NCBI GenBank assembly: GCA_002069125.1 | Contig: MVZN01000008.1 | Location: 5,643 to 69,642, forward strand | Source of the DNA: Spirochaetes bacterium ADurb.BinA120 | GTDB taxonomy: Bacteria; Spirochaetota; UBA4802; UBA5368 | Direction: 5' to 3' | DNA: 64,000 nucleotides | In this document: positions 4,425 to 64,000 of the stretch, piece after piece | Layout: each line of letters opens with the position of its first letter | How positions within the stretch are numbered: the stretch's first letter is position 1 | Notes under the pieces: model-generated | The model's database searches: none | What the model was told of the DNA's origin: nothing | The model's input: only the letters and a program-made list of their open reading frames with translations | Program-made: the position numbers and the translations under genes

Positions 4425-5228
4425 TCAGAAATATCTGCGATAGAAACGCTCGATGCCCTGCCAGATCCTTCGTCTGAGGTCGAGCATGCGCACGTTGTTT
4501 ACGGAGAGATCGTCGTGGCGGAAGTAGCGGTCGTTGATGAAAAGGGCGCGCGATACGGAAAGCCTAAGGAGCGGGATTTTCCCGCGCCCGTGCCGGAGCA
4601 TGATGTGTCCGTCGAACCGCGGGCTGTTGAGCGCAAAGGGTTCGCCAACTGTCCATTCCTCGCTTCCGAGCGATTTCCTCATGGATTCCAGCAGGCCGCG
4701 CGCCGTCTCGTCGGGGCACGTGCGCACCGGCTCGCCGCGGTCCATGACGGTATTGCTTACGGTAACGATGGGGCGCGGCCTTCCCGGATCCGCCGCGTGT
4801 TTGGGGCCCACCGCCATCATCGTGTGGCAATCGAGTACAAGGCGCACCCTGCCGCTCTCGAGTATCTTTTCGACGGTTTGATGGAATCCGTGGTAATAGC
4901 GCATAAGGAGATTGTTTATCGCGATCTCGTCGGGGAACACGCCGGGGGGGTAGATGGGAACGCCCGAGCTCGTTCGCTTTTTTACAACCCCGTCGTCGGT
5001 GCGGGGAGCGAGCGAAAGGTGGTGGCGGTCCAGGTCCACAAACAGGCGGTTTATCTGCGAGTCTATGCGCGCGGCGACGCTATCGCCGAAGTCGAAAAGC
5101 ACGTCGGCGCAGGCGTCGGACTCGAAAAACAGTTCGAAGTCACCCAGAATCTCGTACCCGGCGAGTTCGTCCGGCACGCTCCGTCCGGCGTGCGGCACGA
5201 GGATGAGGATGGGAAGGCCGCTCTTCAT
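4425..5228 (-). CDS. N-formylglutamate amidohydrolase family protein
   Basis: Size of 267 aa and overall pattern (LILVPHAGR...LDCHTM) resemble the FGase family. The long plus-strand ORF opposite it (4173..5342) is Arg-rich antisense. Confidence 0.5.
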   Translation of the reverse strand: MKSGLPILILVPHAGRSVPDELAGYEILGDFELFFESDACADVLFDFGDSVAARIDSQINRLFVDLDRHHLSLAPRTDDGVVKKRTSSGVPIYPPGVFPDEIAINNLLMRYYHGFHQTVEKILESGRVRLVLDCHTMMAVGPKHAADPGRPRPIVTVSNTVMDRGEPVRTCPDETARGLLESMRKSLGSEEWTVGEPFALNSPRFDGHIMLRHGRGKIPLLRLSVSRALFINDRYFRHDDLSVNNVRMLDLRRRIWQGIERFYRRYF

Positions 5229-5531: not shown

Positions 5532-6038
5532 ATGCGCGCATACAAGACCGACGAAATTGGGGAGGCAATCCTCGAGATACTTAGCGCCAACGCCAAGGCG
5601 ACAGCGGAGGACATCGCGCGCCAGCTCGACGTGGCCGAGAGCAGGGTGTCGAAATACATAAAGCAGTTCGAGAAGGACAGGATAATCCTGAGATACAAAA
5701 CCCATGTCAACTGGATGAGGGTCCGCAACAACCAGGTGCGCGCGCTCATCGAGGTGAAGGTCATCCCGGAGCGCGGCGTGGGTTTCGACGCGGTCGCGGA
5801 ATCCATCTACCGCTATCCGGAGGTGTCGTCGGTTTTCCTTCTGTCCGGAAGCTACGATCTTCTTGTGCAGGTCGAGGGACCGACCCTTCAAGAGGTTTCG
5901 CTCTTCGTATCGGAAAAGCTCGCCACAATCAAGAACGTGCAGTCCACGGTCACGCATTTCCTCCTTAAAAAATACAAGGAGGACGGTGATGTGCTCGTCG
6001 ATCAGCCGGAATCCAAGCGCCTGCCCATGAGTTTTTAG
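5532..6038 (+). CDS. Lrp/AsnC family transcriptional regulator
   Basis: N-terminal HTH (ILEILSANAKATAEDIARQLDVAESRVSKYIKQFE) followed by an AsnC-type ligand-binding domain; 168 aa. Confidence 0.75.
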   Translation: MRAYKTDEIGEAILEILSANAKATAEDIARQLDVAESRVSKYIKQFEKDRIILRYKTHVNWMRVRNNQVRALIEVKVIPERGVGFDAVAESIYRYPEVSSVFLLSGSYDLLVQVEGPTLQEVSLFVSEKLATIKNVQSTVTHFLLKKYKEDGDVLVDQPESKRLPMSF

Positions 6039-47789: not shown

Positions 47790-48105
47790 TCCGGGAAGCC
47801 CTAATAATCGATATATATATGCCCATGAAAAATATTTTTAATCATAATAGTTCAACGATTTAAATGCTCCGCTCCGCCAGCTCGCCCCGCGGCGCCGTGT
47901 TCCATGTGTGCTTTACCGCTGACTACTAACACGGAGGCCGGTGTTCTGCAATATCTGATAATATATTTATCATATTATATTATATGCATATATTATAAGA
48001 TGTATAAAATAATATATTAAATATCCTAATATTGTATGATTAAGAAAAAATAATAAATCACGGCGCATTAGCATTAAAATAATATTGACTAATCCAATGC
48101 CGGGT
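47790..48105. promoter_or_regulatory. About 320-bp AT-rich island upstream of the Fdh-like/hydrogenase operon
   Basis: A stretch at roughly 15-25% GC inside a roughly 62% GC background, with many short A/T palindromes (atatgcatat at 47982-47991) and a TTGACT-16 nt-TACGGT promoter-like pair at 48084-48111. No ORF on either strand. Confidence 0.4.
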
Positions 48106-50316: not shown

Positions 50317-51380
50317 CCATGTTCCTTATCAAGAAATCCGACGTCGGTAAAATTGCAGAGGAGCTCGCACGGGACCACCAGGTGTACGGCCCCATGATAG
50401 AGAAGGGCTCGGGACAGACCTTTTTCGACCGGGCGGACGATGTGTCCGAAATAAGCCTCTCGGCGCCCATCCCGTCGAATCCGCCCAAATCGGTCGTTTT
50501 TCCGCAGATGGAACGAGTCCTTGCCTACGAGTATGACAGGCCTAAAAATTCGGTAAAGATCGAGCCCGATTACAAGGTCGAGCCCAAGGCCCTTGTGGGG
50601 CTTCGTCCCTGCGACCTGGCGGGCATGTTATGCCTGGACCGCTTCTTTATGGGACAGGAATTCGTCGACGAGGTTTATCTCGCGCACCGCAAAAAGATGT
50701 TCATCGTCACCAACACCTGCGTCGCGCCGTTCAAGCAGTGCTTCTGCGTGTGCACGGACAGCGGCCCGGCGGCAAGCGAGGGCTATGACCTTAACCTCAC
50801 GGACTTAGGCGATGAGTTTCTGGTGGAGACCGGTTCCGAAAAGGGCGCAGTATTCGCGGCCGGGCTCGGCCTTGCGGCCGCCGACGACTCGCACCTGGCG
50901 AGGAAAAAGAAGATAGTGGACAAATCGATCTCTCTCTTCGAGGACATCGCGGTCGATTCAAAGGCCTGGATCTCGCGCGTGATGAACCGCGTAACCACCG
51001 GCTTCGTGAAGGAGGAGGTCTGGGAATACATCGGCGACCAGTGCTTCGAGTGCGGGGCCTGCTCCTTCGTGTGCCCGTCCTGCTCGTGCTTCAACATCGC
51101 CGACGTAACCAACCCGGAATGCGAGGGCTGCGCCGACCGTCTGCGCTCCTGGGATTCGTGCTCCTATGAGGGATATTCGCGCATGGCGGGCGGGCACAAT
51201 CCGCGAAAACCGGTCGAGGACCGGCGCAACAAGCGCTTTTTCTGCAAGCTGTCATATTCGCAGATGAAGAAATATCTCAGGCCGGGATGCGTGGGCTGCG
51301 GGCGCTGCGCCTGGGTGTGTCCCGGCGATATCGGCCTGCCGAACGTCGTGACCTATGTCAGAAGGGAAATTACGAGGTAG
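50313..51380 (+). CDS. Fe-S subunit, AsrA/HydB (sulfhydrogenase beta)-like
   Basis: Multiple Cys clusters (CFCVC; CFECGACSFVCPSCSC; CVGCGRCAWVCP). ATGA overlap with the upstream gene. Confidence 0.65.
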   Translation: MTMFLIKKSDVGKIAEELARDHQVYGPMIEKGSGQTFFDRADDVSEISLSAPIPSNPPKSVVFPQMERVLAYEYDRPKNSVKIEPDYKVEPKALVGLRPCDLAGMLCLDRFFMGQEFVDEVYLAHRKKMFIVTNTCVAPFKQCFCVCTDSGPAASEGYDLNLTDLGDEFLVETGSEKGAVFAAGLGLAAADDSHLARKKKIVDKSISLFEDIAVDSKAWISRVMNRVTTGFVKEEVWEYIGDQCFECGACSFVCPSCSCFNIADVTNPECEGCADRLRSWDSCSYEGYSRMAGGHNPRKPVEDRRNKRFFCKLSYSQMKKYLRPGCVGCGRCAWVCPGDIGLPNVVTYVRREITR

Positions 51381-51389
51381 GGGAATCCT

Positions 51390-52241
51390 ATGAGCCAGGT
51401 ACTGAACATCCAGGACGGTAAGATAGTCACCGTGCCCGAGGTCGCCACGATAGAGGAAATAAGGGACGAGATCCGCGAGGTCAAGACCTTCTACCTCTCG
51501 ATCGACAACAGGGAGATATGGAGCGGCTTCAAGTACAAATCGGGGCAGTTCATCATGCTGACGGTTTTCGGTTCGGGCGAGTTCGCCGTTTCGCTCCCGC
51601 CCAGCCCCGAAAACGACCGGTTTCACATAACGGTTCGGACCGTGGGCAAGGTGACGAGCGCCCTCCACGCCCTCAAGCCCGGCGACAAGGTGGGCATAAG
51701 AGGGCCGTTTGGAAACGGCTTTCCCTTCGAGGAGTTCAAGGGGAAAAACTTAGTGTACGTGGCGGGCGGCATAGGGCTCATCCCGCTTCGTTCGTCCATC
51801 GTCCATGCGCTCCAGCACAAGAAAGACTTTGGCAGGGTGCTGGTGCTGCACGGCGCCCGTACGCCCGACGACCTCATGTATAAGGAAAATCTTAAAGAGT
51901 GGCAGAGCTTCGAAGGCTTCGAGACCTACATCACCGTGGATGTCTCGACTCCGGGCTGGACGGGCGAGACAGGCTTCGTCCATACGCTTTTCGACAAGGC
52001 GAACCTCCCCATCGACAATACGGTCGCCTTCGTATGCGGTCCCCCGGTGATGTTCAATACGGTGATAGGGGAGCTCATGAAGCGGGGCCTTTCGGACGAA
52101 AACATATATTCAACACTCGAGCGGCACATGAAATGCGGAGTGGGAAAGTGCCAGCACTGCGCGGTCGGAAGGACCCTGGTCTGCACCGACGGGCCGGTGT
52201 ACACCTACCGGCAGATAAAGACCCTGGGCGAGGAGATATAG
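51390..52241 (+). CDS. FAD/NAD(P)-binding oxidoreductase with C-terminal 2Fe-2S, AsrB/HydG/PyrK-like
   Basis: FAD site (RFHITVRTVGKVT), NAD(P) site (VYVAGGIGLIPL) and C-terminal CxxxxCxxC (CGVGKCQHCAV). Confidence 0.7.
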   Translation: MSQVLNIQDGKIVTVPEVATIEEIRDEIREVKTFYLSIDNREIWSGFKYKSGQFIMLTVFGSGEFAVSLPPSPENDRFHITVRTVGKVTSALHALKPGDKVGIRGPFGNGFPFEEFKGKNLVYVAGGIGLIPLRSSIVHALQHKKDFGRVLVLHGARTPDDLMYKENLKEWQSFEGFETYITVDVSTPGWTGETGFVHTLFDKANLPIDNTVAFVCGPPVMFNTVIGELMKRGLSDENIYSTLERHMKCGVGKCQHCAVGRTLVCTDGPVYTYRQIKTLGEEI

Positions 52242-52262
52242 CCCGCCGGGGACGGAAAGAGC

Positions 52263-52778
52263 ATGAAGGAACAGGCGGTGAACATCGTGGACGACATCCG
52301 CAGCGCACTCTCGCGAAAGACCTGCATCGTGGGCGTGGGGAACACCCTGCTCGGCGATGATGGCGCGGGCGTGCTTCTCGTCGAGACGCTCAGGCGCGAC
52401 GGCGCGGGCGAACGCGTACACTTAGTCAACGCGGAGGATATCATCGAGAGTCATGCTTTCGAAATCGCGGAAGGCGACTGGGGCACCGTGATAGTGGTGG
52501 ACGCGGTGAGTTTCGGCGGAAGCCCCGGAGACGTAATGTTCGGGGACTTTTCTGAGACAGGCGATTTGCTGAACGATTTCTCGACGCATAAGCTTTCGCT
52601 CAGGCTTTCCGAGTCGATCTGGCGGCAAAGCGGAAAAAAGACCTTTCTCCTCGGCATCCAGCCGGAGGCCGTGGATTTCGGCGAGGGGCTCTCGGAGGCC
52701 GTGCGCAGGAGCGTCGATACGCTCGGCGGCATACTACTCGAAGCAGTTAAACAGCACCCCGAAGGAGCGTGTGTATGA
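52263..52778 (+). CDS. [NiFe]-hydrogenase maturation endopeptidase (HycI/HyaD family)
   Basis: GVGNTLLGDDGAGV motif and 171 aa. Confidence 0.8.
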   Translation: MKEQAVNIVDDIRSALSRKTCIVGVGNTLLGDDGAGVLLVETLRRDGAGERVHLVNAEDIIESHAFEIAEGDWGTVIVVDAVSFGGSPGDVMFGDFSETGDLLNDFSTHKLSLRLSESIWRQSGKKTFLLGIQPEAVDFGEGLSEAVRRSVDTLGGILLEAVKQHPEGACV

Positions 52779-54634
52779 GTGACCTTTATGGAAAACTGAT
52801 TCTCGCGATGGCGATACTCCTCTGTTCGGCGGTCGTTGTGCCGTTTATCGCCGAAAAACGCAAGCTGGCGGGCTGGCTCAACTTCATCTTCGTTGCGGTG
52901 GCGGGCGCCATCCTCCTTTCGATCAGCTACAGCGTGATATTCGTGAAGTCCCTTCCGTCGCGGCTCGTTTCGGTGGGCCCTCTGGATATCTACTTTCTGC
53001 TGGACGGCTTTTCAGGGTTTTTCCTGGGGATAATTTCGCTCATGGCGATCGTAAGCGCGTTCTATTCGATAGAATACATGGAGCATTACGGCGATTACGG
53101 CCTCAGGAGCTACTACGCCAATTATCCAATTTTCGTACTGGGCATGGCGGGCATCGTTACGGTCGACGATCTTACTACGGGCTTTTCCATCGCATGGCAG
53201 GCGATGACCATTACGAGCTATTTTCTCGTGCGCTTCGAACATCGAAAAAAAGAGATCGTAAAGGCCGCCAACAAGTACCTCGTCCTCATGGAGCTTGCAT
53301 GGCTCTTCATAGTGATCGCCGCCCTCGCGGCGGGAAGCTCCATGGGCGATTCGGTGCACTCGGTCACCCGCCTCATCGGCGAGACCGGGGGCGCGCTTCC
53401 CTATCTCATCTACGGACTCGTCTTCCTGGGGTTCGGCTTTAAGGCCGCGGTCTTTCCGTTCGGACAGATGTGGCTGCCGGACGCGCACTCCATCGCCCCT
53501 TCGCCCATAAGCGCGCTCCTTTCGGGGGTGATGATAAAGACCGGCGTCTATGGGATCATCCGATCGTTTTTCTGGATGGTGCCGCACTCCGATACCTTTC
53601 ACTTCAGCGGGGCCTTCTGGGGCGCGCTCATCGCCTCCTTCGGCGTGGTCACGCTCTTTATCGGCACGGTGCAGTCCATGAAGCAGAGCCAGTCGAAGCG
53701 GCTGCTGGCTTATTCCTCGATAGGGCAGGTGGGCTATATCATCTTCGGAATCGGCGCCGCCCTCTTCATGGTAAACGCCGAGAGCGCCGCGCTTAAAATG
53801 CTCGGCCTCATAGCGCTCGTCGGGGTGGTGTATCACATACTCAATCACGCGGTGTTCAAGGGGCTGCTCTTTCTTACAAGCGGCAGCGTGCTCTACAGCA
53901 CCGGGACCAAGGACCTCAACAGGTTAGGCGGGCTTATAAACCTCATGCCGGTCACCGCGTTTGTCGCCGGCATAGCCTCCCTGTCCATCTCGGGGGTCCC
54001 TCCGTTCAGCGGTTTCGTGAGCAAATGGACGCTTGTGTCCACTTCGCTTCTTGCCGGAAGCGAGGTGCTGTTCCTTGTCATCTTCGGCATCGTGGCGCTC
54101 TTTACGAGCGCGGTGACGCTTGCGTGTTATGTGAAATTTTTTGGCATGACCTTCACCTCGGCGGGGGCCGAGTGGGGGGTGGGCAGGGAGGTCAGGGAGG
54201 TCCCCGCGGGCATGCTTATCCCCAAGCTCTTTCTTACGGCGCTGTGCCTGCTCCAGGGGCTCATCCCCTTCTTCTACTTCCAGACCATAATAGGCATATT
54301 CGCGGGTTCCGGGGGCTCCCTCATTTCGGCGGCTTTCAGGAACCTGAACGTGCAGGGCCACGTATTCAACTCGGCCATGGGCGTGTCGGTGGGAATTCCG
54401 GGGCTTTCCGCCGTCTCGTCGATCGCGGTTCCCGCGGTGCTTCTTGCGGTTTTCGCGGCGGCGTTCGTCGTCGTAGCTTTTTTAAGAAAGTCCGGCGGAT
54501 CGAAGGAACGCGAGGTCCCGACATGGCTCTGCGGTTATCAGGACCTGCACGATAAAAACAGGTACCGCGACAAGAGCATGTTCGCGGCGCTAAAAAACCT
54601 TCTGTATTGGACCGGCGGAAACGTAAAGGAATAA
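52775..54634 (+). CDS. Hydrogenase membrane subunit, HycC/HyfB (NuoL/antiporter-like) family
   Basis: About 14 TM helices with the NuoL/MrpA-like core. The ATG at 52775 has a GGAG RBS and overlaps the protease stop. Confidence 0.8.
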   Translation: MSDLYGKLILAMAILLCSAVVVPFIAEKRKLAGWLNFIFVAVAGAILLSISYSVIFVKSLPSRLVSVGPLDIYFLLDGFSGFFLGIISLMAIVSAFYSIEYMEHYGDYGLRSYYANYPIFVLGMAGIVTVDDLTTGFSIAWQAMTITSYFLVRFEHRKKEIVKAANKYLVLMELAWLFIVIAALAAGSSMGDSVHSVTRLIGETGGALPYLIYGLVFLGFGFKAAVFPFGQMWLPDAHSIAPSPISALLSGVMIKTGVYGIIRSFFWMVPHSDTFHFSGAFWGALIASFGVVTLFIGTVQSMKQSQSKRLLAYSSIGQVGYIIFGIGAALFMVNAESAALKMLGLIALVGVVYHILNHAVFKGLLFLTSGSVLYSTGTKDLNRLGGLINLMPVTAFVAGIASLSISGVPPFSGFVSKWTLVSTSLLAGSEVLFLVIFGIVALFTSAVTLACYVKFFGMTFTSAGAEWGVGREVREVPAGMLIPKLFLTALCLLQGLIPFFYFQTIIGIFAGSGGSLISAAFRNLNVQGHVFNSAMGVSVGIPGLSAVSSIAVPAVLLAVFAAAFVVVAFLRKSGGSKEREVPTWLCGYQDLHDKNRYRDKSMFAALKNLLYWTGGNVKE

Positions 54635-54665
54635 AAGGGGCCATCCTTATTTAACGAGGTACGCT

Positions 54666-56339
54666 ATGCCAGGCATTGAAGAGATCAAAAACGGCTTGAA
54701 GAAGGGTTTTAAGGACGCCGTCGTCTCGGTCGAGGAGCAGAACCCGACGCGGATGTTCGTTGATATAAAAAGCGCCAAGGTGCGCGATGTTTCCAACGCG
54801 ATCGTCGCGATGGGCGGGCGCTATCTTGTAAGCGTGGGCTACGACAATATCGCGCGTGACGGCACGCTGGGGATGATCCACACCTTCGGCTTCGACCGCG
54901 ACGGCATTTATCTGGCCCTTCGCACGTCGGTGCCCGAATCGAAGCCCGAGATGGACTCCATAACGCCGGATATTCCAAACGCCGGCTGGTCCGAGCGGGA
55001 ATATATGGACCTGTTGGGGATGAGGTTTTCCGGGCACCCCAAACCGAAGAGGCTCGTTCTTGCCGACGACTGGCCCGAGGGCGTGCATCCCCTTCGAAAG
55101 GACATCCCCTGGAACCTCATGCCGCCGGCGGCGGAGGACGTCGCCTACCAACTCGACGAGTGCCCCGAGGGCTGCAGTATAGTCCCGCTCGGGCCGTATC
55201 ATCCCACCCTGCACGAGCCGGAGCACTTCGCCATCTACGTCGATGGGGAGACAGTAAAGGGGTGCGATTACCGCGGTTTTATGACGCACCGCGGAATCGA
55301 AAAGCTGTGCCAGACGCAGCTTACGTACAATGAGGTGCCGTTCGTCGCGGAGCGCATCTGCGGCATCTGCGGCTCGGTCCACGCCACCAGCTATTCGCAG
55401 GCGGTTGAGCTTGCGGGCGGCATAAAAATTTCCCGCAGGGCCGAGTACATCCGCACCATAATGCTCGAGATCGAGCGCATACACTCGCACCTATTGTGGC
55501 TTGGGGTCGCAGGCCACCTCATTGGTTTCGACACGGTCTTCATGCAGTCGTGGCGCATTCGCGAGCCCGTCATGTGGCTCGGAGAGAGGATCACCGGAAA
55601 CAGGAAGACCTATGGGATGATCGTTATCGGCGGAGTGCGCCGGGACATTACGGACGAAATGAAAGACGATATACGGAATGTGATCGGGACGATCGAAAAG
55701 GAGCTTCTGACCGTTCAGAAGGCGATACAGGGCGACACGGCGATTCACAGGCGAACAAGGGGCGTCGGTTACATCTCCACCGATGATACGAAGCTCTGGA
55801 GCCTGGTAGGCCCGGTCGCCAGGGCGCGGAACGTGGACATCGACGTTCGCCGCGACTACCCGTACGCCGCCTACGATGAGATGAAGTTCGACGTTCCGGT
55901 CTTCGATTCAAACGACGTGTGGGCCACCGTGCTGGTTCGCCTGGTCGAGACCTTCGAGGCGATCAAGATCATACGCCAGTGCCTGGACAAAATGCCGAAC
56001 GACGGCCCGGTTCTTACCGAGCTCGATGCGCCCATCCCGGCGCTGAAGCACGGCCTGGCGGCGGTGGAGGCCCCGCGCGGCGAGGTGGTGCACTATGTCA
56101 TCACCGGCGAAAAGAACGCCCCCGAGCGCTGGCGGGTGCGCGCCCCTACCTATCCCAATCTCCAGGGGGTCCCGCTCATGCTTTTGAACAACCAGCTCGC
56201 CGACGTGCCGATCATCATCGGGAGCATAGACCCATGCTTTTCGTGCACCGACCGGATGGAGGTAGTGGACCTGAGATCGGGTGCGGCGAAGATCGCCTCG
56301 CAGGTCGAGCTCGAAGAGCTCTCACGGAACAAAAGGTAG
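54666..56339 (+). CDS. Group-4 [NiFe]-hydrogenase large subunit, fused NuoC-NuoD type (HycE-like)
   Basis: N-terminal NuoC-like domain, Ni-Fe site cysteines RICGICGSVH and DPCFSCTDR, and a C-terminal extension consistent with HycI-type processing. Confidence 0.85.
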   Translation: MPGIEEIKNGLKKGFKDAVVSVEEQNPTRMFVDIKSAKVRDVSNAIVAMGGRYLVSVGYDNIARDGTLGMIHTFGFDRDGIYLALRTSVPESKPEMDSITPDIPNAGWSEREYMDLLGMRFSGHPKPKRLVLADDWPEGVHPLRKDIPWNLMPPAAEDVAYQLDECPEGCSIVPLGPYHPTLHEPEHFAIYVDGETVKGCDYRGFMTHRGIEKLCQTQLTYNEVPFVAERICGICGSVHATSYSQAVELAGGIKISRRAEYIRTIMLEIERIHSHLLWLGVAGHLIGFDTVFMQSWRIREPVMWLGERITGNRKTYGMIVIGGVRRDITDEMKDDIRNVIGTIEKELLTVQKAIQGDTAIHRRTRGVGYISTDDTKLWSLVGPVARARNVDIDVRRDYPYAAYDEMKFDVPVFDSNDVWATVLVRLVETFEAIKIIRQCLDKMPNDGPVLTELDAPIPALKHGLAAVEAPRGEVVHYVITGEKNAPERWRVRAPTYPNLQGVPLMLLNNQLADVPIIIGSIDPCFSCTDRMEVVDLRSGAAKIASQVELEELSRNKR

Positions 56340-56349
56340 AGGAAAGACC

Positions 56350-57249
56350 ATGGATATCCTGACAGCCGTGATCAACGCGTTGATTTTCCTGGCGCTGGCC
56401 CCGTTTTTCGAGGGTGTCATACGAAGGCTTTACGCCAGGGTGCAGTCCCGAAAGGGGCCGCCGCTCATTCAGCCCTATCTCGATCTCCTTAAGCTTCTGG
56501 GCAAGGAGACGCTTTCGGCCGGAAACTGGGCCTTCAGGATCGCACCGATGATGGCGCTGGCGTCCATAATTACGGTGGTGTCGATAATGCCCCTCGGCTA
56601 CAGGGCGGGATACCTGACCCAATACGGCGACATCATCACGGTCATATATCTGCTCATGCTCGGCGGGGTGTCGGTGCTTCTGGGGGCGCTCTCCAGCAAA
56701 AACACATACGCCATGTTAGGGGCGAGCCGCGAGATGGTGACCATGATAATGATCGAGCCGGTCCTGGCCATGACCCTTATATTAGGCGCGCTGAAGGCGA
56801 AAAGCCTTGCGATCGACGCGAGCCTTTCGAGCTCCCTTAACGGCGCTTACGGCATTTCGATGGTGCTCATGCTCGTCGTTTTTCTGATGGCGCTCCAGGC
56901 CTTTGTGGCCAGGCAGCCCTTCGATATTGCCGAGGCGGAGGTCGAGATTATGGAGGGCCCGTTTATCGAATACAGCGGCCCGGGGCTGGCGCTCTTCAAG
57001 TATTACATGATGATTAAGCAGATGTTCTACGCGGCGCTTTTCGCTGCGGTGTTCGTTCCGCTGGTCAACACCGGCTATTATATCGTGGATGTGGCGGTCC
57101 AGCTTGTCGAGATTCTGGCGGTCTTCGTGCTGATCTCGCTCCTCGGCTCGACCAACCCGCGCTTGCGCATAGACCAGGCGGTTAAGTATTATGCCGTGCT
57201 AATATTCGCTTCGCTCGCGGCCGTGGGGCTTACGGCGTACGGAATTTAG
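56350..57249 (+). CDS. Hydrogenase membrane subunit HycD/NuoH-like
   Basis: Polytopic NuoH-family membrane protein with RKGPPLIQPYLDLLKLL. GAGGA RBS. Confidence 0.8.
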   Translation: MDILTAVINALIFLALAPFFEGVIRRLYARVQSRKGPPLIQPYLDLLKLLGKETLSAGNWAFRIAPMMALASIITVVSIMPLGYRAGYLTQYGDIITVIYLLMLGGVSVLLGALSSKNTYAMLGASREMVTMIMIEPVLAMTLILGALKAKSLAIDASLSSSLNGAYGISMVLMLVVFLMALQAFVARQPFDIAEAEVEIMEGPFIEYSGPGLALFKYYMMIKQMFYAALFAAVFVPLVNTGYYIVDVAVQLVEILAVFVLISLLGSTNPRLRIDQAVKYYAVLIFASLAAVGLTAYGI

Positions 57250-57376
57250 AAGATTAAAGATTAGAAGATTAGAAGATTGGAAGATTTGAAGATTATGGAT
57301 AGCATAATGACCGAATTCAAGACGAGTGATTTCCTGCTCAATAGATCTTTTAATCTTGAATCTTAAATCTTAAATC
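57250..57376 (+). repeat. Intergenic element A: direct array of 6 AAGATTA-like heptamers, roughly 47-nt spacer, inverted array of about 4 heptamers
   Basis: The direct array aagattaaagattagaagattagaagattggaagatttgaagatta (57250-57296) starts at the hycD-like stop. The inverted array atcttttaatcttgaatcttaaatcttaaatcc (57344-57376) ends just before the AAGGAG RBS of the hycF-like gene. Confidence 0.6.
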
Positions 57377-57390
57377 CAAGGAGAAACACC

Positions 57391-57936
57391 GTGTGGCTGA
57401 CAAGTAAGATAAAACAGGTATTCATGGTGGCCAAACCCGGAGTGGTGACGCTTCAATATCCTTTCGAGCCGCGCCCGGCTCCGGAGAATTTTCGGGGCCA
57501 GCCCTACTGGGACCATCACAAGTGCATTGGATGCGGCGGCTGTGCGGCCCACTGTCCGGCGCGCACCATACTTGTGCGGGACCTTTGCCAGGAGCTTCGA
57601 GTGATGGTCTACGACGGCTCCCGATGCACCTACTGCGGAAGGTGCGCCGACGTGTGTCCCGAGGACGCCATCACCATGACGGCAAGCTACGAGCTGGCTA
57701 CCGGCAGCAAAGAGGACGTAAACGAGACCATGGAGCTCTTTATGGCGACCTGTCAGCGATGCGGCCGTTGTTACGACCACGAGATCACCAACGCGATCGA
57801 TCGCATGTCGAGGATAGGGTTCAAGTACGACAGCCTGGAGATGAGGGCGGTGGTGCCGGTGAGCTCCGAGCAGTTCGACATGAAGCTGTATGAAAAAACC
57901 GAAAAAATCAAAAGGCCGGAAAAGGCGGGAGAATAG
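57391..57936 (+). CDS. Hydrogenase Fe-S subunit HycF/NuoI-like (two 4Fe-4S)
   Basis: CIGCGGCAAHCP and CTYCGRCADVCP ferredoxin motifs plus a further CQRCGRC. GTG start with an AAGGAG RBS. Confidence 0.8.
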   Translation: MWLTSKIKQVFMVAKPGVVTLQYPFEPRPAPENFRGQPYWDHHKCIGCGGCAAHCPARTILVRDLCQELRVMVYDGSRCTYCGRCADVCPEDAITMTASYELATGSKEDVNETMELFMATCQRCGRCYDHEITNAIDRMSRIGFKYDSLEMRAVVPVSSEQFDMKLYEKTEKIKRPEKAGE

Positions 57937-57938
57937 CC

Positions 57939-58469
57939 ATGCTTGCCAACCTGATCAAAAAGGCGTTTCCCAGATCCCTGTGGGTTTATCATTGCAACTC
58001 GGGAGCGTGCAACGGCTGCGACATCGAGATCCTGAACGTGCTGACCCCTTATTACGATATCGAGCGTTTCGGCATGAAGCTTGTGGGCTCGCCCCGGCAC
58101 GCCGATGTCATGCTCATTTCCGGCGCCGTGACGAGACCGACTCTTCCGATAGTCAAGAAGGCCTATGAAGCGATTCCCGCCCCGAAACTTGTCTTCGGAG
58201 TTGGTTCGTGCGCCGTGGGCGGGGGCTGCTGGTTCGACTGCTACAATGTTACGGGCGGCGCGGACAAGGCCGTGCCGATCGATTATTACATTCCCGGCTG
58301 CCCGCCGCGTCCGGAGGCGATTATCTACGGGGTGGCGCTCGCGCTTGGACTTGTCGAAAAGAAGGTCGCCCCCATAGAGCTCAAGCAGATGGAGTTTCCG
58401 ATCGACATGTACGAGCGGAACAAGGCCTGGGAAGAGCGCAATGTCATATACGAGTTGATTAAAGATTAA
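57939..58469 (+). CDS. Group-4 [NiFe]-hydrogenase small subunit HycG/NuoB-like
   Basis: NuoB-family cysteines (CNGCD; GSCAVGGG; CPPRP). Confidence 0.85.
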   Translation: MLANLIKKAFPRSLWVYHCNSGACNGCDIEILNVLTPYYDIERFGMKLVGSPRHADVMLISGAVTRPTLPIVKKAYEAIPAPKLVFGVGSCAVGGGCWFDCYNVTGGADKAVPIDYYIPGCPPRPEAIIYGVALALGLVEKKVAPIELKQMEFPIDMYERNKAWEERNVIYELIKD

Positions 58470-58578
58470 TAGATTAAAGATTATAAGATTAAAGATAATC
58501 GGCGGCATGACGCCTGGTTTGCCGGAAAGGACTTGCCGCCAGGCGAATGTCTTAATCTTGAACTCATAATCTTTAATA
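58457..58578 (+). repeat. Intergenic element B: direct array of about 5 AAGATTA heptamers overlapping the hycG-like stop, roughly 51-nt GC-rich spacer hairpin, inverted array of about 2 heptamers
   Basis: Direct array ttgattaaagattaatagattaaagattataagattaaagataatc. The spacer ggcggcatgacgcctggtttgccggaaaggacttgccgccagg is self-complementary. Inverted array cttaatcttgaactcataatctttaata. Same design as element A. Confidence 0.6.
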
Positions 58579-58604
58579 CGCAATCCATAACCCTGGAGCG
58601 AGAC

Positions 58605-59006
58605 ATGGCAAAAAAGATACTCTTGGTTGATGACGACAGCGACCTGGTGGCCAGCCTTTCGCAGGCGCTTACAATGAATGGATATGAGGTGTCGGTTGCC
58701 TACAGCGGCGCCGAGGGCCTCGCGAGACTTCTTGAGGTAAGGCCGGACCTCATGATTCTCGACGTTATGATGGAGACCGACACCGCCGGGTTCGAAATGA
58801 CCTATCAGATCCGCGGTACGCGGCCCACGTCCAAATATCGAGACGTGAAGGACACCCCAATAATCATGCTGACAGCCATAAACCAGGTCACCAATTCCAG
58901 GTTCTCGCTAAACGAAGGCCAGAGCTTTCTTCCCGGCGTGAACGATTTCCTCACCAAACCGGTGAAGATCGACGAACTACTCGATAAGGTGAAAAAGCAG
59001 ATTTAG
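58605..59006 (+). CDS. Single-domain response regulator receiver (CheY-like)
   Basis: KILLVDDD...DLMILDVMM...KP receiver signature; 133 aa; no output domain. Confidence 0.8.
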   Translation: MAKKILLVDDDSDLVASLSQALTMNGYEVSVAYSGAEGLARLLEVRPDLMILDVMMETDTAGFEMTYQIRGTRPTSKYRDVKDTPIIMLTAINQVTNSRFSLNEGQSFLPGVNDFLTKPVKIDELLDKVKKQI

Positions 59007-59073
59007 CGGAAAAATGCCTTGCCCTCTGGGCGCCTCTGGTTTCACGATACTACACGTTATGGATAATCGTATA

Positions 59074-59103
59074 AGGGGATATCATTGGATATCCCCCTTT
59101 TCT
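59074..59103 (+). terminator. Candidate intrinsic terminator (ggggatatc-attg-gatatcccc followed by CTTTTCT)
   Basis: Perfect 9-bp stem with a 4-nt loop, about 70 nt after the receiver stop, followed by a T-rich tract. Confidence 0.45.
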
Positions 59104-59118
59104 ATGGCGGGCTATTCG

Positions 59119-59829
59119 ATGAAAATAAGGCATCTGGTATTCATCCTGCTTGTGGCGGTTGTCGCGGGCTCCCTGTACAACAGCCAGCGGCTGTACCACT
59201 GGTACCTCGCCGCGTATTACCAGCGCTTCCTCGGTGAAGATCGGGAAAAATCCATAGAAAGGGCGCGCTCGCTTTACAGGGATGAGCGCTATGAAGAGCT
59301 CGATGCCTATACCGGACGCATGAGGGTCCTCTACCCGGACAATTCCGACCTGCGCCGCCTGAAAGGGTTCGCGATGATTAAAACCGGCCGCGAATCGGAG
59401 GGGGCGCACATGGTTATATCCTCGTTGAGAAAGAACGAGGCCCTTCTTTCGGTTGCCAGTGCCATCGAAATATTGTTCAAGGAAGGGGAGTACGCGGACC
59501 TCGACGACATCATCTCCAGCCACGGGACCATGGGCGACCCGTATCTTCAATATATTCACGGCGTTTCGCTTTATCATGTCAAAAAATACGCTGAGGCGGA
59601 GCGGCGCCTTGCAGGAGCGTTGAGCGCCGGGAAACAGGATTACGACACGCTGTACTACCTTGGTCTGGCCCGTGAGAAAAACGGCAGAACGGTCGAGGCG
59701 CTCGCCGCGATCGAAAAGGCCTATGCGATAGACCCTATACGCCCCGAGGCCCGAAAGGCCCTGGTTCGTCTCTATCGAGTGACAAAACAATACGACAGGG
59801 CGGAAAGAATTCCGCGGAGGACACCATGA
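59119..59829 (+). CDS. TPR-repeat protein with N-terminal membrane anchor
   Basis: Hydrophobic N-terminus (LVFILLVAVVAGSL) and TPR repeats (YYLGLAREKNGRTVEAL). Start uncertain (59059, 59104 or 59119). The longer antisense ORF 59050..59790 was rejected. Confidence 0.5.
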   Translation: MKIRHLVFILLVAVVAGSLYNSQRLYHWYLAAYYQRFLGEDREKSIERARSLYRDERYEELDAYTGRMRVLYPDNSDLRRLKGFAMIKTGRESEGAHMVISSLRKNEALLSVASAIEILFKEGEYADLDDIISSHGTMGDPYLQYIHGVSLYHVKKYAEAERRLAGALSAGKQDYDTLYYLGLAREKNGRTVEALAAIEKAYAIDPIRPEARKALVRLYRVTKQYDRAERIPRRTP

Positions 59830-61220
59830 TCGACCATTTTTTCCATCCTAACGGCGTCGCCATCATCGGCGCGACGGACAACCCGGCAAAGGGCGGCTAT
59901 CATATTCTGCGAAATACGCTGGCCGGCTACAAGGGGCGCGTGTATCCCGTCAATCCGAGGTACGAAGAAATACAGGGGACCAGGTGCTATCCGAACGTCG
60001 AATCGATACCCGAGGATTTCGATCTTGCGATCTATTTTATCCCGGCCAAATTTCTGCCCGACACCATAAAGGCGTGCGCAAAGAAGGGGGTGAAGGCCAT
60101 AATCATTGAGTCCGCGGGCTTCTCGGAGGTGGGCGAGGAGGGGCGGCTCTTGCAGAGGGAATCGGTGGAGCTGGCGCGGAGCCTGGGGATAAGGCTGTGG
60201 GGGCCGAACTGCATGGGGCTTCTCGACGGCCATAGCCGCAACGTCTTCTCGTTCATGTACTCGGATAAATGGATGACCCTTATGAAGCCGGGGGGCGTTT
60301 CGCTGGTGGTCCAGAGCGGGATGCTTTCGGCGGGCTTTCTCATGATGATTCTGGAGAGCGGCGGCATGGGTATCGCCAAGGTGTGTTCCATCGGAAACAA
60401 GTGCGATGTGGATGAGACTGAACTGCTGGAGTACCTGATCGCCGACGAGGAGACCGGCGTCATAGGCCTTTATCTGGAGTCGATAATCGACGGCCGTAAA
60501 TTTCTTGAGCTCGCTCGCTCCACGTCCAAGCCCATTATAGTGCTAAAGGCCGGGCGAAGCGAGGAGGGCGCGAAGGCCGCGATGAGCCATACGGCGAGCC
60601 TGTCGGGCGTGGCGGCGGTCTACGAGGGGGCCTTTCGCCAGGCCGGAATAGTGCAGGTTTACGACGTGCACGAGTTGATGGACTTCGCGCGCGGTTTCTC
60701 CAAGGTGCCGCCTTGCGCCGTGGACGCAGGGACGGCCGTCATCACCTTCTCCGGCGGGGCCGGTATAGTAACCTCGGACCTCCTGTCCGACCGCGGGGTA
60801 AAGCTTGCCGATTTGGGAGAGCAAACCATCTCCGCCCTAAAAGAGGTGTTTCCGCCATGGATGAAGCCCACGCATCCTGTCGACGTATGGCCCTCGGTCG
60901 AGCTTAACGGCCTCGAGCCGGTTTACGCGAAGTCTATTGAGGCGGTCATGAAGGACCCGGGGGTCGATTCTATCATAGTCCAGTCTATCGCCTGGGAGCT
61001 TGCAAGCCCCGGCTATCTCGTCGAGGCCGGGAAGCTGCAGCGGAAGTACCAGAAGCCCATCGTGCTCTGGCAGATAGGCGCCATGGATATAGCCGAAAAG
61101 TACCGTGTCGCGGCGGAGGACGCCGGGATACCGGTCTTCACCGAGATCAGCCGATGTGTTGGGTTTGTCGCCGGGGCAAAGGAGCACTCGAGGAAGAAGG
61201 CCGGGACGGGTGTTTCATAA
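59826..61220 (+). CDS. Acyl-CoA synthetase (NDP-forming) alpha-domain / CoA-binding protein
   Basis: CoA-binding Rossmann motifs (PNGVAIIGATDNPAKGG; GVKAIIIESAGFSE; LWGPNCMGLL). ATGA overlap with the upstream TPR gene. Confidence 0.7.
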   Translation: MIDHFFHPNGVAIIGATDNPAKGGYHILRNTLAGYKGRVYPVNPRYEEIQGTRCYPNVESIPEDFDLAIYFIPAKFLPDTIKACAKKGVKAIIIESAGFSEVGEEGRLLQRESVELARSLGIRLWGPNCMGLLDGHSRNVFSFMYSDKWMTLMKPGGVSLVVQSGMLSAGFLMMILESGGMGIAKVCSIGNKCDVDETELLEYLIADEETGVIGLYLESIIDGRKFLELARSTSKPIIVLKAGRSEEGAKAAMSHTASLSGVAAVYEGAFRQAGIVQVYDVHELMDFARGFSKVPPCAVDAGTAVITFSGGAGIVTSDLLSDRGVKLADLGEQTISALKEVFPPWMKPTHPVDVWPSVELNGLEPVYAKSIEAVMKDPGVDSIIVQSIAWELASPGYLVEAGKLQRKYQKPIVLWQIGAMDIAEKYRVAAEDAGIPVFTEISRCVGFVAGAKEHSRKKAGTGVS

Positions 61221-61350
61221 TCGGCTCCTGCGATTATTGTGATGTCTGTTGAAATAGTATCGCGTGTGCTGTATCATACATTGTATCGGATTGCAAAGAG
61301 GGATTAGGGCGGGGCGTTTATTGAACCGGGTGCCTCGGAAAGGAGATCGT

Positions 61351-61485
61351 TATGATGAAGACGATTTTAATAATCATCGGCATGTCATGCTGGCTTTTTG
61401 TACTGGTGACGAGCAGTATAAGGCTGGTCAATTCACAACTGGATAAAAGCATCGAACAAAAGTTGAAATCAATAAATAATTGAGA
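61351..61485 (+). CDS. Small (44 aa) single-TM membrane peptide in a low-GC islet
   Basis: MMKTILIIIGMSCWLFVLVTSSIRLVNSQLDKSIEQKLKSINN. It has an AAGGAG RBS 7 nt upstream and A/T-rich codon usage unlike its neighbours. It is not in the ORF track because it is under 60 aa. Confidence 0.4.
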
Positions 61486-61536
61486 GGTTCGACAGGGTAC
61501 TTATCCTCCTCGCTTAGTTTGTGATTTCGATTGGAA

Positions 61537-62529
61537 TTAAAACTGCCTGAGCTTTTCGTGCTCGAGGCCGCACTTCTTCTCCTTTTTGTCTAAATACCAG
61601 CCGTAATAGTCCAGGTCGTGCGCAGGGACCATTATGCAATGCTCGTGGTCGTAGTAATCGCGGTAGTGGTTCAAAAAATGGCCGAATTCGTGCGTGGCGT
61701 ATAGCGCGATAACGTCGGTAAGCTTTTCGGGAGGGATCTCCCTTCCGCGCTTAAGGACAAAAAAGCCGTCTTTGGAAAGAAAGGGATAGGTAAAGATGAT
61801 CCCGGCCGCGCGGAATGCGTTGCGCCGATTTTCCTCGACAAGGCCGGTGGTGATACCGTGGCGGAGCGCCACGTAAATCGGTATGTCGAGCTCCATGTCC
61901 GCCATGATGGTATTGGTGAAGATGAAGTGCGCCCCCTCCAGATGGCGCAGGGCCATGTCCCAGAAGGGGTAGGTGAGCGTATCGGCGTATGGCGCCGCCC
62001 CGAGCGGCGTGCCGTCGGCGGTGCGGATGCCCTGTATCTTCCGGAGGTTCTCGACGTATTCTTCGTGGATGTGCGCCGCGATCTCTTTTCGGCCGGCAAA
62101 ACGCCCGTAATCGGGAACGTGGCGGCGCAGGGTCGATTCGGCCGTGTCGGCCACGAGTTTGTCGATATAGTCCTTCAAACGCGTACGGTCCGTTTCGCTT
62201 TCGACGTTTAAAAGGCTTTCCTTAAGCGTGGACATCATCGGGAGGTCGTCCAGCTTTTTCATCTCCTTTCTGAAGTCGGGCAATGGCTGGTTCGCCTGCA
62301 CAAAGAAGCTCACGTTATATCCAAGGTATTCGCGGATGTATTCCCGGCAGCGGTCAAGCATGTCCTGAAACTCGGCCTCGGAAAGGGCCGGCAGGCGCGG
62401 GTCTACGATATGCCGTACCACGATCGGGTATTCGCGGTCGCTCGGGAGCTCCCTTAGCGCGTTTCCAGCCAGTGTGGAACAGGAGAGGGCCAGTATGATT
62501 GCAAGGAATGGGCGCGGACGTCGTTTCAT
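61537..62529 (-). CDS. Putative zinc metalloprotease lipoprotein (HExxH)
   Basis: Signal peptide with lipobox (LAIILALSCS), HEFGH zinc-binding motif near the C-terminus. Confidence 0.55.
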   Translation of the reverse strand: MKRRPRPFLAIILALSCSTLAGNALRELPSDREYPIVVRHIVDPRLPALSEAEFQDMLDRCREYIREYLGYNVSFFVQANQPLPDFRKEMKKLDDLPMMSTLKESLLNVESETDRTRLKDYIDKLVADTAESTLRRHVPDYGRFAGRKEIAAHIHEEYVENLRKIQGIRTADGTPLGAAPYADTLTYPFWDMALRHLEGAHFIFTNTIMADMELDIPIYVALRHGITTGLVEENRRNAFRAAGIIFTYPFLSKDGFFVLKRGREIPPEKLTDVIALYATHEFGHFLNHYRDYYDHEHCIMVPAHDLDYYGWYLDKKEKKCGLEHEKLRQF

Positions 62530-62754
62530 ATCTCATACCTCCCGGAGCGGTTGTTATAGAAGATACGCCTTATGGGGCTTTAGTTCAAGCGAAATCCTGC
62601 GCCCATCCGAGGGTATTTGGGCGCCGGGTAAACGGCCTGAAAATGCCTTTGCCGGCATGGGCGGTGCGCCGGCGAATCATCGGCGAAGGCATAGTAATTT
62701 TCTTGACACGGCGGGGGGATTGGGTAGCCTTAATGCCGCCCTGTTCTAAACACA

Positions 62755-64000
62755 ATGAAAGCGTTTATATCTTATATAGGACGAAATATCTATTTCTCCC
62801 TCCGGGAGATCGTGAGGAATATTCTGCGAAGCCTATTGTCCAGCTTCGGGATCATATTCCTCATCGCCTTCCTGGTGCTCTACCTGTCCCTCAGGCAGTC
62901 GATCAAGGAATATATCGGCGGAACGCTCTTCGGCTCGCTCGATATCAACGAGATTGTGGTTTCCCCGCCGTCCATGGGCGCCGGCGAGCTTATCAGCATG
63001 GGGGCGCGCTCGGAGAAAATACCGGCGGACAGGGTGCGGCGCATCCGGGCCATACAGGGTATCGGCGAGGTGAATTCGATTATCAGGATGGAGTATCCGG
63101 CGAAGGTGAAGCTCGAGATGTTCGGCCGCTCAGTTCGGGAATACATGCCGGTATACGGCATCAGCCCGGCGTTTTTGCGGAAGTCGGAGAAGCGTTGGCG
63201 GCAGTTTGTCTCGGGGACCGAGGTCCCGGTCATAGTGCCCAAATTCGTCCTGGACGTCTTCAATAACCTGGCGGCGGCGCGGGGGCTTCCACAGCTTGGC
63301 GAAAAGGCGCTCTGGGGGTTCCCCATGGAGCTCGCCATCGAAACCGCGGCGCGCGGCGCGCCGGAGCGTAAAAAGTACGATCAGCCGGCCCGTGTGTTCG
63401 GTTTCAGCGCGGAGCTGCCGCTTACGGGGCTGGTAGTGCCTTCCGACTTCATCACCGGATTTGCCGCCTCGCACGCGGGCGATCCAAACGCCATCAAGCC
63501 GGGCTTTTCCTACGCACAGCTTGTGATTATGGTGAAGAATACAGGGGAGCTTCCCGAAATAAGTAAAAAAATCCAGGCCCTGGGCCTCAAGGTCGAATCG
63601 CAGCAGGACATCGCGGCGAAGACCAACAAGGCGCTCGCGGTCATCGACGGTTCGTCGCTGGTCATCATGGGGATATTCCTCTTCCTTACGGTGATCGCGA
63701 TCTTCAATTCCTATCTCACGATAGTCTACAATCGCAGCCATACCTTCTCGCTGTTGCGTGTGATAGGCGTATCGAAGGCCCGCATCATCCTCACCTTTGT
63801 CTTCGAAGCGGGGGTAATCGGAGCGCTCTTCGGGCTTGTAGGATATTATACGGGGGCTATGGCGATCGGTTATCTGAAGCACCATATACCGCACTGGGTC
63901 CCGGTGCTTAAAGGGCTTGCGCTCGGGCGTGAGCCGGGGGTGCTGCCTATGGCGGTTGGGCTTTCGGCGCTGTTGTCATCGGTCTCCGCGTTTATCCCGG
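62755..64000 (+). CDS. ABC transporter permease, FtsX/MacB/LolCE-like family (partial, continues beyond window)
   Basis: N-terminal TM, large periplasmic domain, then a FtsX-type helical bundle (LVIMGIFLFLTVIAIFNS...LLRVIGVSKARI). Found by hand translation; absent from the ORF track because the end is truncated. Confidence 0.7.
   Translation, partial: MKAFISYIGRNIYFSLREIVRNILRSLLSSFGIIFLIAFLVLYLSLRQSIKEYIGGTLFGSLDINEIVVSPPSMGAGELISMGARSEKIPADRVRRIRAIQGIGEVNSIIRMEYPAKVKLEMFGRSVREYMPVYGISPAFLRKSEKRWRQFVSGTEVPVIVPKFVLDVFNNLAAARGLPQLGEKALWGFPMELAIETAARGAPERKKYDQPARVFGFSAELPLTGLVVPSDFITGFAASHAGDPNAIKPGFSYAQLVIMVKNTGELPEISKKIQALGLKVESQQDIAAKTNKALAVIDGSSLVIMGIFLFLTVIAIFNSYLTIVYNRSHTFSLLRVIGVSKARIILTFVFEAGVIGALFGLVGYYTGAMAIGYLKHHIPHWVPVLKGLALGREPGVLPMAVGLSALLSSVSAFIP

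Follow-up and report, generated by a model that had tools for sequence, protein, structure and literature searches.

Elements A and B are two tandem-repeat foldbacks within a formate-hydrogenlyase-like operon on a 64,000-nucleotide (nt) stretch of contig MVZN01000008.1 from Spirochaetes bacterium ADurb.BinA120 (assembly GCA_002069125.1, forward-strand positions 5,643 to 69,642), hereafter called the window. Element A (57250-57377) occupies the junction between a hycD-like and a hycF-like gene, and element B (58457-58577) the junction between a hycG-like gene and a response-regulator gene, with hycF and hycG bracketed between the two. Both follow one plan, in which direct units of an AAGATT-type heptamer are followed by a core of ~49 nt and then by inverted units. 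With a little more than even confidence, A and B are interpreted as lineage-specific foldback inserts of a heptanucleotide simple-sequence repeat that would act in cis as hairpins in the operon mRNA, in the manner of the repetitive extragenic palindromes (REP) of enterobacteria and the short tandemly repeated repetitive (STRR) sequences of cyanobacteria. Heptamer-repeat hairpins are already known in cyanobacteria and other bacteria, and A and B are real but fairly ordinary; the part that could be new is the recurrence of RRGATTN foldbacks across phyla.

Anatomy of the two elements

The direct arrays, the inverted partners and the second copy reported in the initial annotation were all recovered, both in the sequence and by Tandem Repeats Finder (TRF), and AAGATT-type arrays occur nowhere else in the 64 kb. 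The pair motif AGATT-N2-3-AGATT is found 10 times in the window, always within A or B, against 0.27 expected from shuffles. The elements have ~32-40% GC in a window of roughly 53-62% GC. Their parts and the adjoining translation signals are:

57250 to 57295, forward strand: left arm of element A, six direct units AAGATT(A/AG/AG/GG/TG/A) (TRF period 8, 6.4 copies, score 79)
57296 to 57342, forward strand: core (loop) of element A, unique, about 48 nt, with homologous cores in the related loci L011, L015, L016 and L259 and in window B
57343 to 57377, forward strand: right arm of element A, AGATCTTTT, AATCTTG, AATCTTA, AATCTTA, AATCC (TRF AATCTTA x3.6)
57378 to 57393, forward strand: Shine-Dalgarno (SD) sequence AAGGAG of hycF (57378-57383) and its GTG start (57391), read from the sequence
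58457 to 58499, forward strand: left arm of element B, about five units GATTAAA/GATTAAT/GATTATA (TRF period 7, 5.4 copies)
58500 to 58548, forward strand: core of element B, a GC-rich hairpin CGCCTGG...CCAGGCG by fold and a diverged homologue of the A-type core by alignment through the B element of L259
58549 to 58577, forward strand: right arm of element B, degenerate inverted units GTCTT AATCTTG AACTCAT AATCTTT AAT (inverted repeats I2/I4)
58580 to 58607, forward strand: small local hairpin CGC-AA-TCCA...TGGA-GCG, with the response-regulator SD paired in minimum-free-energy (MFE) folds

Tandem head-to-tail 7-nt units are thus present in three or more copies (period 7-8; 6.4, 3.6 and 5.4 copies), the period of 8 in the left arm of A arising from an extra base in some units. 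Element A lies wholly between a stop codon and an SD sequence: its first unit directly follows the hycD-like stop TAG (57247-57249), and the AAGGAG of hycF abuts the last inverted unit, immediately 3' of the stem base. The right arm of A is 90% complementary to the left (inverted repeat I1) and pairs with it in the MFE fold, while the core holds a small hairpin, ATTATG-GATAG-CATAAT (57292-57308), and a pyrimidine stretch, TTTCCT. The overlap of element B with hycG is limited to that gene's last four codons; the final L-I-K-D-stop (TTGATTAAAGATTAA) is made up of the first B units, within a left-arm array that TRF reports as GATTAAA x5.4 at 58457-58496. From the end of its right arm ~17 nt lead to the ribosome-binding site of the response regulator (SD GGAG at 58595-58598, ATG at 58605). 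B had been described as a recurrence of a near-identical design, and the shared design stands; in sequence B is not near-identical to A, and the homology of its core is seen only via intermediates in related genomes.

Variation, homology and origin

The elements were compared across the same species, close species and sister lineages. In the close species L011, L015 and L016, whose HycF is about 96-97% identical, inserts are found at the same junctions, the L015 contig ending before the B site. In the sister lineage L012-L014 (HycF 82% identical) the two spacers measure 27 and 33 nt, and in the sister lineage L261 they measure 18 and 3 nt, all without arrays. Because these sister lineages with the same operon have short, array-free spacers, the elements are insertions that arose inside one clade and not ancestral parts of the operon.

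The heptamer copy number was predicted to vary, as in a variable-number tandem repeat, and it does so at two levels. Among species, the unit numbers per arm differ in L011, L015, L016, L258, L259 and L260, and the two arms vary independently; in B of L011 the left arm counts four units and the right arm about ten, and the A site of L260 holds a short version of three units, 19 nt and two units. Within the window's species, represented by 18 fetched places of which some share a contig, B exists in two length alleles 15 nt (two units) apart, the longer one in 3/10 same-species contigs. The 15-nt insertion (TTATAAGATTAAAGA) lies in the left arm and raises it to seven units in L005, L006, L010 and L283, the last being from the same contig as L010. 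A is constant but for one single-nucleotide polymorphism (SNP), that is, 1 segregating site in 141 nt, and B has 5 segregating sites in 149 nt plus the indel, with several SNPs in its right arm; the coding flanks show 0.008-0.026 per site. Among the 18 places no deletion of hycFG through recombination between A and B was found. In L280 (positions 4640-4780, GCA_035408725.1, the window's species), a run of N marking a scaffold gap falls inside the left array of B, and many contigs with these genes are just 2-5 kb long; the B repeat breaks or confuses short-read assembly.

At other loci the array has been lost from one of the two junctions. In L258 and L259 a GC-rich palindrome ending AATCCCC...GGGGATT has taken over most of the A site, and the B arrays are kept. 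This palindrome (L258:2553-2683 and L259:2632-2799, CAAATCCCC...GGGGATTTG) has predicted folding energies of -54 and -82 kcal/mol; its ends correspond to the Nostoc-type heptamer GGGGATT/AATCCCC, and remnants of the old element, GATTATG and TTTAAATCTTGAA, stand beside it. The B site of L260 (3497-3631) has no heptamer arrays and carries a perfect 20-bp GC-rich hairpin (CCGTTTGAAGGGGACGCATG/TATGCGTCCCCTTCAAACGG), so that a strong hairpin is present at the B junction even where the repeat element is missing.

Because B of L011 and L016 carries the core of A, both elements are copies of a single one. In the window itself the B core seems unrelated at first, but it is linked to the A type by the B element of L259 in a gap-poor alignment (A1), and the core length is free of indels in five full-length A-type copies. 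Divergence at fourfold sites of hycF is 0.38 between the window and L011, 0.41 against L015, 0.47 against L259, and 0.03 between L011 and L016. The A core diverges less than synonymous sites, by 7% between the window and L015 and by 17% between the window and L011. Between A of L011 and A of L016, 24% of core positions differ, although the flanks are 98-100% identical. Since the 3' half of the L016 A core is closest to the B type (4 differences, versus 7-10 for A-type cores), gene conversion between the A and B copies, 1.2 kb apart, is suggested. Judged by core divergence and segregating sites, constraint on A is weakly indicated and B looks neutral. In alignment A1, nearly every difference between core copies is a transition (13/13 for window A versus L011 B; 10/11 for window A versus L016 A), and most are A<->G. 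No conserved pairing of the kind that wobble pairs would preserve was found in that alignment.

As to origin, the elements probably either grew in place from native seeds by slippage and template switching, or were captured through microhomology and then exchanged between sites; both routes fit the lack of other copies. Candidate seeds would be the K-D-stop codons of hycG, which are AAAGATTAA in the window and L258 and AAAGATTAG in L259 and include one AAGATTA unit in both forms, and the AATCTTA contained in the hycD-hycF spacer of L261 (TAAATCTTAACGTTAAGGAG). The corresponding hycG codons in the element-less L012 are AAAGACTGA, and the gene of L261 ends TATGATTAA. On the favoured explanation, units are gained and lost by replication slippage, the two copies probably exchange sequence through gene conversion, and the loop is free to mutate.

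Occurrence elsewhere and known heptamer repeats

An exact pattern at the left-arm/core junction (AAGATTATGGNTAGNATAATGA, 20 specified bases) was scanned over 185,579 species-representative genomes. It matched only these two junctions, in two metagenome-assembled genomes of Spirochaetota, in a scan that could miss diverged copies, and no AAGATT arrays were found in the flanks of related loci. As to dispersed copies of the heptamer array, there are two sites in the 64 kb, and the core is located just at these junctions among the species representatives.

The architecture itself is widespread. A pattern that allows any core and requires the inverted partner (AAGATT-N1-2-AAGATT-N45-75-AATCTT-N-AATCTT) was matched by at least 120 metagenome stretches and by two viral contigs, where the chance expectation for 24 specified bases is estimated at a few at most. 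The metagenome matches listed come from many environments and from contigs of 0.29-0.68 GC, in unrelated gene contexts. Among them, several core families recur in different flanks, and many elements begin no more than a few bases away from a stop codon and end at about 30 nt or less from the next start, as judged by crude open-reading-frame calls. The flanks of 77 classifiable elements have co-directional frames in 63 cases, convergent in 10 and divergent in 4. Other tandem heptamers in the listed contigs are mostly one-base variants of RRGATTN, and several AAGATT arrays stand on one contig in other organisms (L193, L255, L057). The arrays had been set apart from a common dispersed repeat that has no inverted partner and no tie to particular operons. 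They turned out to be common in metagenomes and not bound to hydrogenase genes, the inverted partner being required by the search; in the lineage, homologous copies were found only at these two junctions.

Control patterns in viral contigs gave 2 matches for inverted AAGATT, 0 for ATAGAT, 4 for AATGAT and 0 for the reversed arm order, counts too low to single out AAGATT. Because the AATGAT control heptamer forms the same arrangement in viral contigs, the direct-core-inverted heptamer architecture is generic and not unique to AAGATT, even if the RRGATTN family is common. Long foldback arrays of CAATGAT / ATCATTG and variants occur in the viral contigs L275-L277. A pattern for the array only (3 x AAGATT) was too noisy, with at least 120 viral stretches matched and 125/129 arrays lacking an inverted partner.

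Several members of this class were observed individually. A 9.3-kb metagenome contig (L193:1200-5700) has four intergenic AATCTTC-array sites, each adjoining a small GCCGAAGGCG-type hairpin. A conserved core TGTGGATGTCGCT-CGCTCCGTC...CCGCCGAAGGCGGACC stands between AAGATT/AATCTT arms in L193, L176, L177, L226, L138, L161 and L228, which differ in GC and flanks; to all appearance, other organisms have here a dispersed family. In a low-GC family (0.31-0.35; L155, L165, L207, L219, L222, L246), an AAGATTG/CAATCTT foldback is enclosed by a second, longer inverted repeat on the outside (CAGACTATGCATTGAAGAATGAGATTG ...); of the variants seen, it most resembles MITEs (miniature inverted-repeat transposable elements). 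On the phage-like L057 (IMGVR_UViG_3300032020_000130), two AAGATT foldbacks with the core GGAAAATAAGG-ATATCTTTCC (1-90 and 520-610) bracket one 133-aa gene, a pair that mirrors A and B around hycFG; an int-alpA RNA match lies on that contig at 3732-3808.

Similar repeats have been described in other bacteria. The cyanobacterial STRRs are 7-bp hairpin-forming repeats found between hupS and hupL of the uptake hydrogenase, for which transcript stability or translational coupling was proposed with the function unproven, and they are dispersed in many intergenic regions of filamentous cyanobacteria (PMC2670836). A and B resemble the hupS-hupL repeat in their tandem 7-nt units, in their location in a spacer of a [NiFe]-hydrogenase operon and in their capacity to form a hairpin, and function is unproven in both. 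They differ in the heptamer (AAGATTN versus CCCCAGT and similar), in the host phylum, Spirochaetota, and in the group 4 hyc-like hydrogenase; unlike the dispersed STRRs, they amount to two copies in 64 kb with a homologous core found nowhere else. TAACTGA direct heptamer repeats were described in marine Beggiatoaceae, some Cyanobacteria and Bacteroidetes (MacGregor 2015, PMC4679880). The likeness is that one heptamer recurs across distant phyla, mostly in intergenic regions and in variable copy number, ends a few nt before start codons and brings stop codons in all frames. The TAACTGA sets, however, are almost all direct, have no inverted partner and are predicted to be unstructured, whereas the elements here are foldbacks with a core. 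With the recurrence of RRGATTN in unrelated genomes, TAACTGA would no longer be the sole case of a heptamer specificity that is unexplained.

Heptameric repeats GGGAATC in Xanthomonas and GGGGATT/GGGGACT in Nostoc are intergenic and comprise 2-26 units (Rehm et al. 2015, PMC4692102). They share the GATT/AATC motif with the elements here, and some are in inverted pairs able to form stem-loops or cruciforms; the palindromes that replaced A in L258 and L259 end in the Nostoc type. Unlike the AAGATT arrays, which are incapable of forming a quadruplex, those repeats are G-rich, form G-quadruplexes and occupy about 90-190 sites per genome. As Mrazek et al. (2007) are cited in PMC4679880, heptamers are the most abundant long simple-sequence-repeat class in most bacterial genomes, and the function of bacterial heptamer repeats is unknown according to PMC4692102 and PMC4679880. 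In the literature search, no paper was found that contains two or more of the AAGATTN / NAATCTT heptamers. Like REPs, A and B are palindromic inserts between cistrons or after genes, and the A hairpin, starting at a stop codon, has the REP arrangement that reportedly influences translation termination. REP hairpins reportedly stabilise mRNA and affect translation near stop codons. Unlike A and B, REPs are 20-40-nt GC-rich palindromes tagged by GTAG or CGTC, present in hundreds of copies and accompanied by a REP-associated tyrosine transposase (RAYT), none of which was seen here. The REP/BIME signature, BIME being the bacterial interspersed mosaic element, defines an extragenic palindrome family of enterobacteria (PMC3733652); a 20-40-nt GC-rich palindrome with such a tag was looked for in A and B, whose arms are untagged AU-rich heptamer arrays. 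No RAYT (TnpA-REP)-like gene was found among the ten operon-region proteins scanned.

Predicted folding, explanations and operon context

A stem of 30 bp or longer in RNA had been proposed, and folding indeed predicts roughly 30 or more bp, interrupted by bulges. The predicted RNA fold of A reaches -37.3 kcal/mol (z -2.85; 0/200 shuffles as good) and that of B -44 kcal/mol (z -3.2). The inserts of related species at both junctions also fold strongly, except the short A insert of L260 (-11.4 kcal/mol), and the right-arm SNPs of B shift its predicted stability within the species from -44 to -56 kcal/mol. The sense strand folds better than the antisense strand in 13/14 Spirochaete inserts, observations that are not independent. 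The suggestion that A sequesters the ribosome-binding site is not supported by the full fold, in which that site lies directly 3' of the stem base, outside the predicted stem, and the hycF SD is mostly unpaired (P unpaired 0.52-0.84). Downstream of B, the small local hairpin pairs the response-regulator SD in the window (P(unpaired) 0.12), in L259 (0.27) and, to a lesser degree, in L011 (0.46). Removal of the left arm lowers SD accessibility in 2/4 A orthologues (window and L011). A switch in which the core TTTCCT would mask AAGGAG if the left arm were unavailable was considered for these two and set aside, being absent in L015 and L016. No sigma-70-like promoter oriented with the operon was found in A or B, nor any site resembling an intrinsic terminator (GC-rich stem and U tract) inside them.

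On the favoured explanation, the operon mRNA probably includes the inserts, and each insert would be looped out by the pairing of its arms into a long AU-rich hairpin with bulges. The A hairpin would set the upstream stop codon beside the downstream ribosome-binding site, in roughly the geometry of the short ancestral spacer, and would thereby preserve translational hand-over across a spacer of 120-140 nt. Such a hairpin may also block 3'-5' exonucleases, or act as a processing site that sets hycFG levels or the relative stability of the hycFG segment, roles of the kind proposed for the hupS-hupL STRR hairpins (PMC2670836). REP elements are likewise known for such roles. In a spirochaete that is abundant in digesters, the inserts may set how the amounts of the Fe-S subunits HycF and HycG compare with those of the membrane and catalytic subunits. 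The locus offers a clean natural experiment, in which orthologous operons have the foldback, an overwriting palindrome, or neither.

Several points weigh against this explanation. Transcription through A and B, folding in vivo and any effect on expression are inferred, and with a bulge every 6 bp the hairpins would be only moderately stable; A of L015 and B of L011 do not fold significantly better than shuffles (z about -0.9). In the metagenome class, sense and antisense folding show no asymmetry (21 vs 21, p 0.97), and because this asymmetry is absent, the class as a whole shows no sign of RNA-level selection. The in-place origin from seeds is plausible, going by three short sequences, and slippage alone does not explain why RRGATTN recurs in many unrelated genomes. 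Both the slow A core and the retention of inserts at the two junctions through about 0.4-0.5 fourfold divergence hint at something beyond neutrality, but in L258 and L259 another palindrome largely stands in place of A.

The possibility that the elements are neutral repeat DNA, produced by slippage and template switching and tolerated exactly between stop codon and ribosome-binding site, is considered unlikely, though it has much of the above in its favour: the elements are missing in sister lineages with the same operon, B is length-variable and as polymorphic as neutral sites, the cores diverge fast without conserved structure, A is largely overwritten in two species, and folding in the metagenome class has no strand asymmetry. 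If slippage alone were involved, the finding would be ordinary. Deletion bias is usual in bacteria, and it speaks against a neutral insert being kept, as this large one is, at both junctions in six or more species through 0.37-0.54 fourfold divergence. The A core is 2-6 times slower than fourfold sites, A has but the one segregating site noted above, and where arrays were lost, another strong hairpin is found at the same place in most of these species. A rather low probability is given to a wider proposal, that AAGATT-type (RRGATTN) heptad foldbacks are an undescribed cross-phylum intergenic family with a shared recognising machinery, whose copies in this operon were domesticated or stranded and now shape hycFG expression. 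The heptad-family specificity in metagenome stretches would point to such machinery; candidates would be a protein that binds heptads, or a transposase acting in trans for which tandem heptads serve as ends. It is similarly improbable that A and B represent two insertions of a non-autonomous foldback-type MITE with terminal inverted repeats of tandem heptamers. That origin would account for two copies homologous in arms and core at sites empty in relatives, for the same arms around recurrent core families in contigs of differing flanks and GC (e.g. TGTGGATGTCGCT-CGCTCCGTC), for the low-GC family with extra outer inverted repeats and for the contigs with several copies. It is opposed by the exact-pattern scan, in which the core was confined to these two junctions in two genomes, by arm lengths that vary by slippage in place of fixed ends, and by a B left arm continuous with native hycG codons. 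No transposase is visible, and no target-site duplication: the inverted arms are present with ragged outer ends, and no duplicated flank is seen against the empty sites of L012 and L261.

On the favoured explanation, the elements are neither sequence-specific regulator sites nor structured riboregulators. In the initial annotation the arrays were likened to binding sites for a regulator, a reading that is unsupported, whereas the RNA hairpin is plausible. Arrays bound as DNA, like the heptads of the omega repressor, or as RNA by a multimeric protein that controls translation of hycF/hycG or of the response regulator, are held to be quite improbable. The omega repressor of pSM19035 is said to bind operators of tandem 7-bp units in direct and inverted orientation. 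A and B likewise combine direct and inverted 7-bp units, and the omega heptad WATCACW shares AATC with AATCTTN; moreover, A is positioned at a ribosome-binding site, and RRGATTN recurs across unrelated contigs where other heptamers are rare, which is hard to explain by slippage alone. Unlike omega operators, which are contiguous plasmid promoter or centromere sites bound by a ribbon-helix-helix protein, the arms here are split by the 49-nt core and lie between cistrons, with no operon-oriented promoter-like site and no such protein among the neighbours. Unit number, spacing (7 or 8 nt) and inter-unit base vary freely across strains and species, independently in the two arms; A is replaced in two species, and sister lineages dispense with the elements. 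Of the class members, 4/77 lie between divergent genes. No gene for a DNA- or RNA-binding regulator is adjacent, the next gene encoding a receiver-only response regulator.

The reading of the core as a specific structured regulatory RNA (riboswitch, attenuator or small RNA) or as a leader micro-ORF (open reading frame) is already largely refuted and retains only a trace of probability. Its appeal lies in the conserved A-type core length, in the ATG of a 23-codon frame in A-type cores, and in the recurrence of the ATTATG/CATAAT hairpin and of the SD-complementary pyrimidine stretch, together with the effect of left-arm removal. The last is absent in L015 and L016, however, and the window's B core has lost both the ATG frame and the hairpin. 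Against Rfam, positions 50000-64000 gave nothing at E<=1, and when 18 loci that bear an element were scanned at the gathering threshold, no hit fell on the elements. RNAalifold on 10 cores found no consensus structure inside the core (-1.2 kcal/mol, one covarying pair). The micro-ORF (MDSIMTEFKTSDFLLNRSFNLES) was rejected, its variable columns being even over codon positions (8/7/7), with no conserved stop or SD. CsrA-type GGA sites were likewise rejected, the GGA in the core hairpin loop not being conserved (GGGTAG and CGGCGG variants in alignment A1). A bypass of the T4 gene 60 type was dropped, as every relative has HycD and HycF as two separate proteins; an integron attC site was dropped, as no integrase is encoded among the operon-region genes scanned.

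The host lineage, an uncultured one within Spirochaetota, is abundant in anaerobic digesters, as seen from public contigs. Pfam scans and gene tables of these contigs identify the operon as a formate-hydrogenlyase-like group 4 [NiFe]-hydrogenase cluster. It begins with a molybdopterin oxidoreductase, an Fe-S protein, an NAD-binding protein and a HycI protease, continues with a NuoL-like subunit, a fused HycE-like large subunit and the HycD/NuoH-like subunit up to element A, then has HycF-like 2x[4Fe-4S] and HycG/NuoB-like subunits up to element B, and ends with the receiver-only response regulator, a tetratricopeptide (TPR) protein and a coenzyme A (CoA) ligase. HycF homologues are named hydrogenase-4 component H by one source. 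The genes that flank the elements are:

56350 to 57249, forward strand: hycD/NuoH-like membrane subunit gene (Pfam NADHdh 8.1e-55; called as 299 aa in public contigs)
57391 to 57936, forward strand: hycF-like 2x[4Fe-4S] subunit gene (Pfam Fer4 families)
57939 to 58469, forward strand: hycG/NuoB-like small subunit gene (Pfam Oxidored_q6 1.6e-29)
58605 to 59006, forward strand: receiver-only (CheY-like) response regulator gene (Pfam Response_reg 3.3e-20, without output domain)

Within 50000-61220 of the window, the response regulator, the TPR protein and an ADP-forming acyl-CoA-ligase-like gene follow the hyc-like genes on the same strand, as in all close relatives; a histidine kinase is located instead at that downstream place in the more distant relatives L012 and L261. 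Further upstream, 47950-48060 is strongly AT-rich with ATATT-type repeats (TRF 47958-47991) in a window otherwise of ~58% GC, and this stretch may be a promoter or regulatory region.

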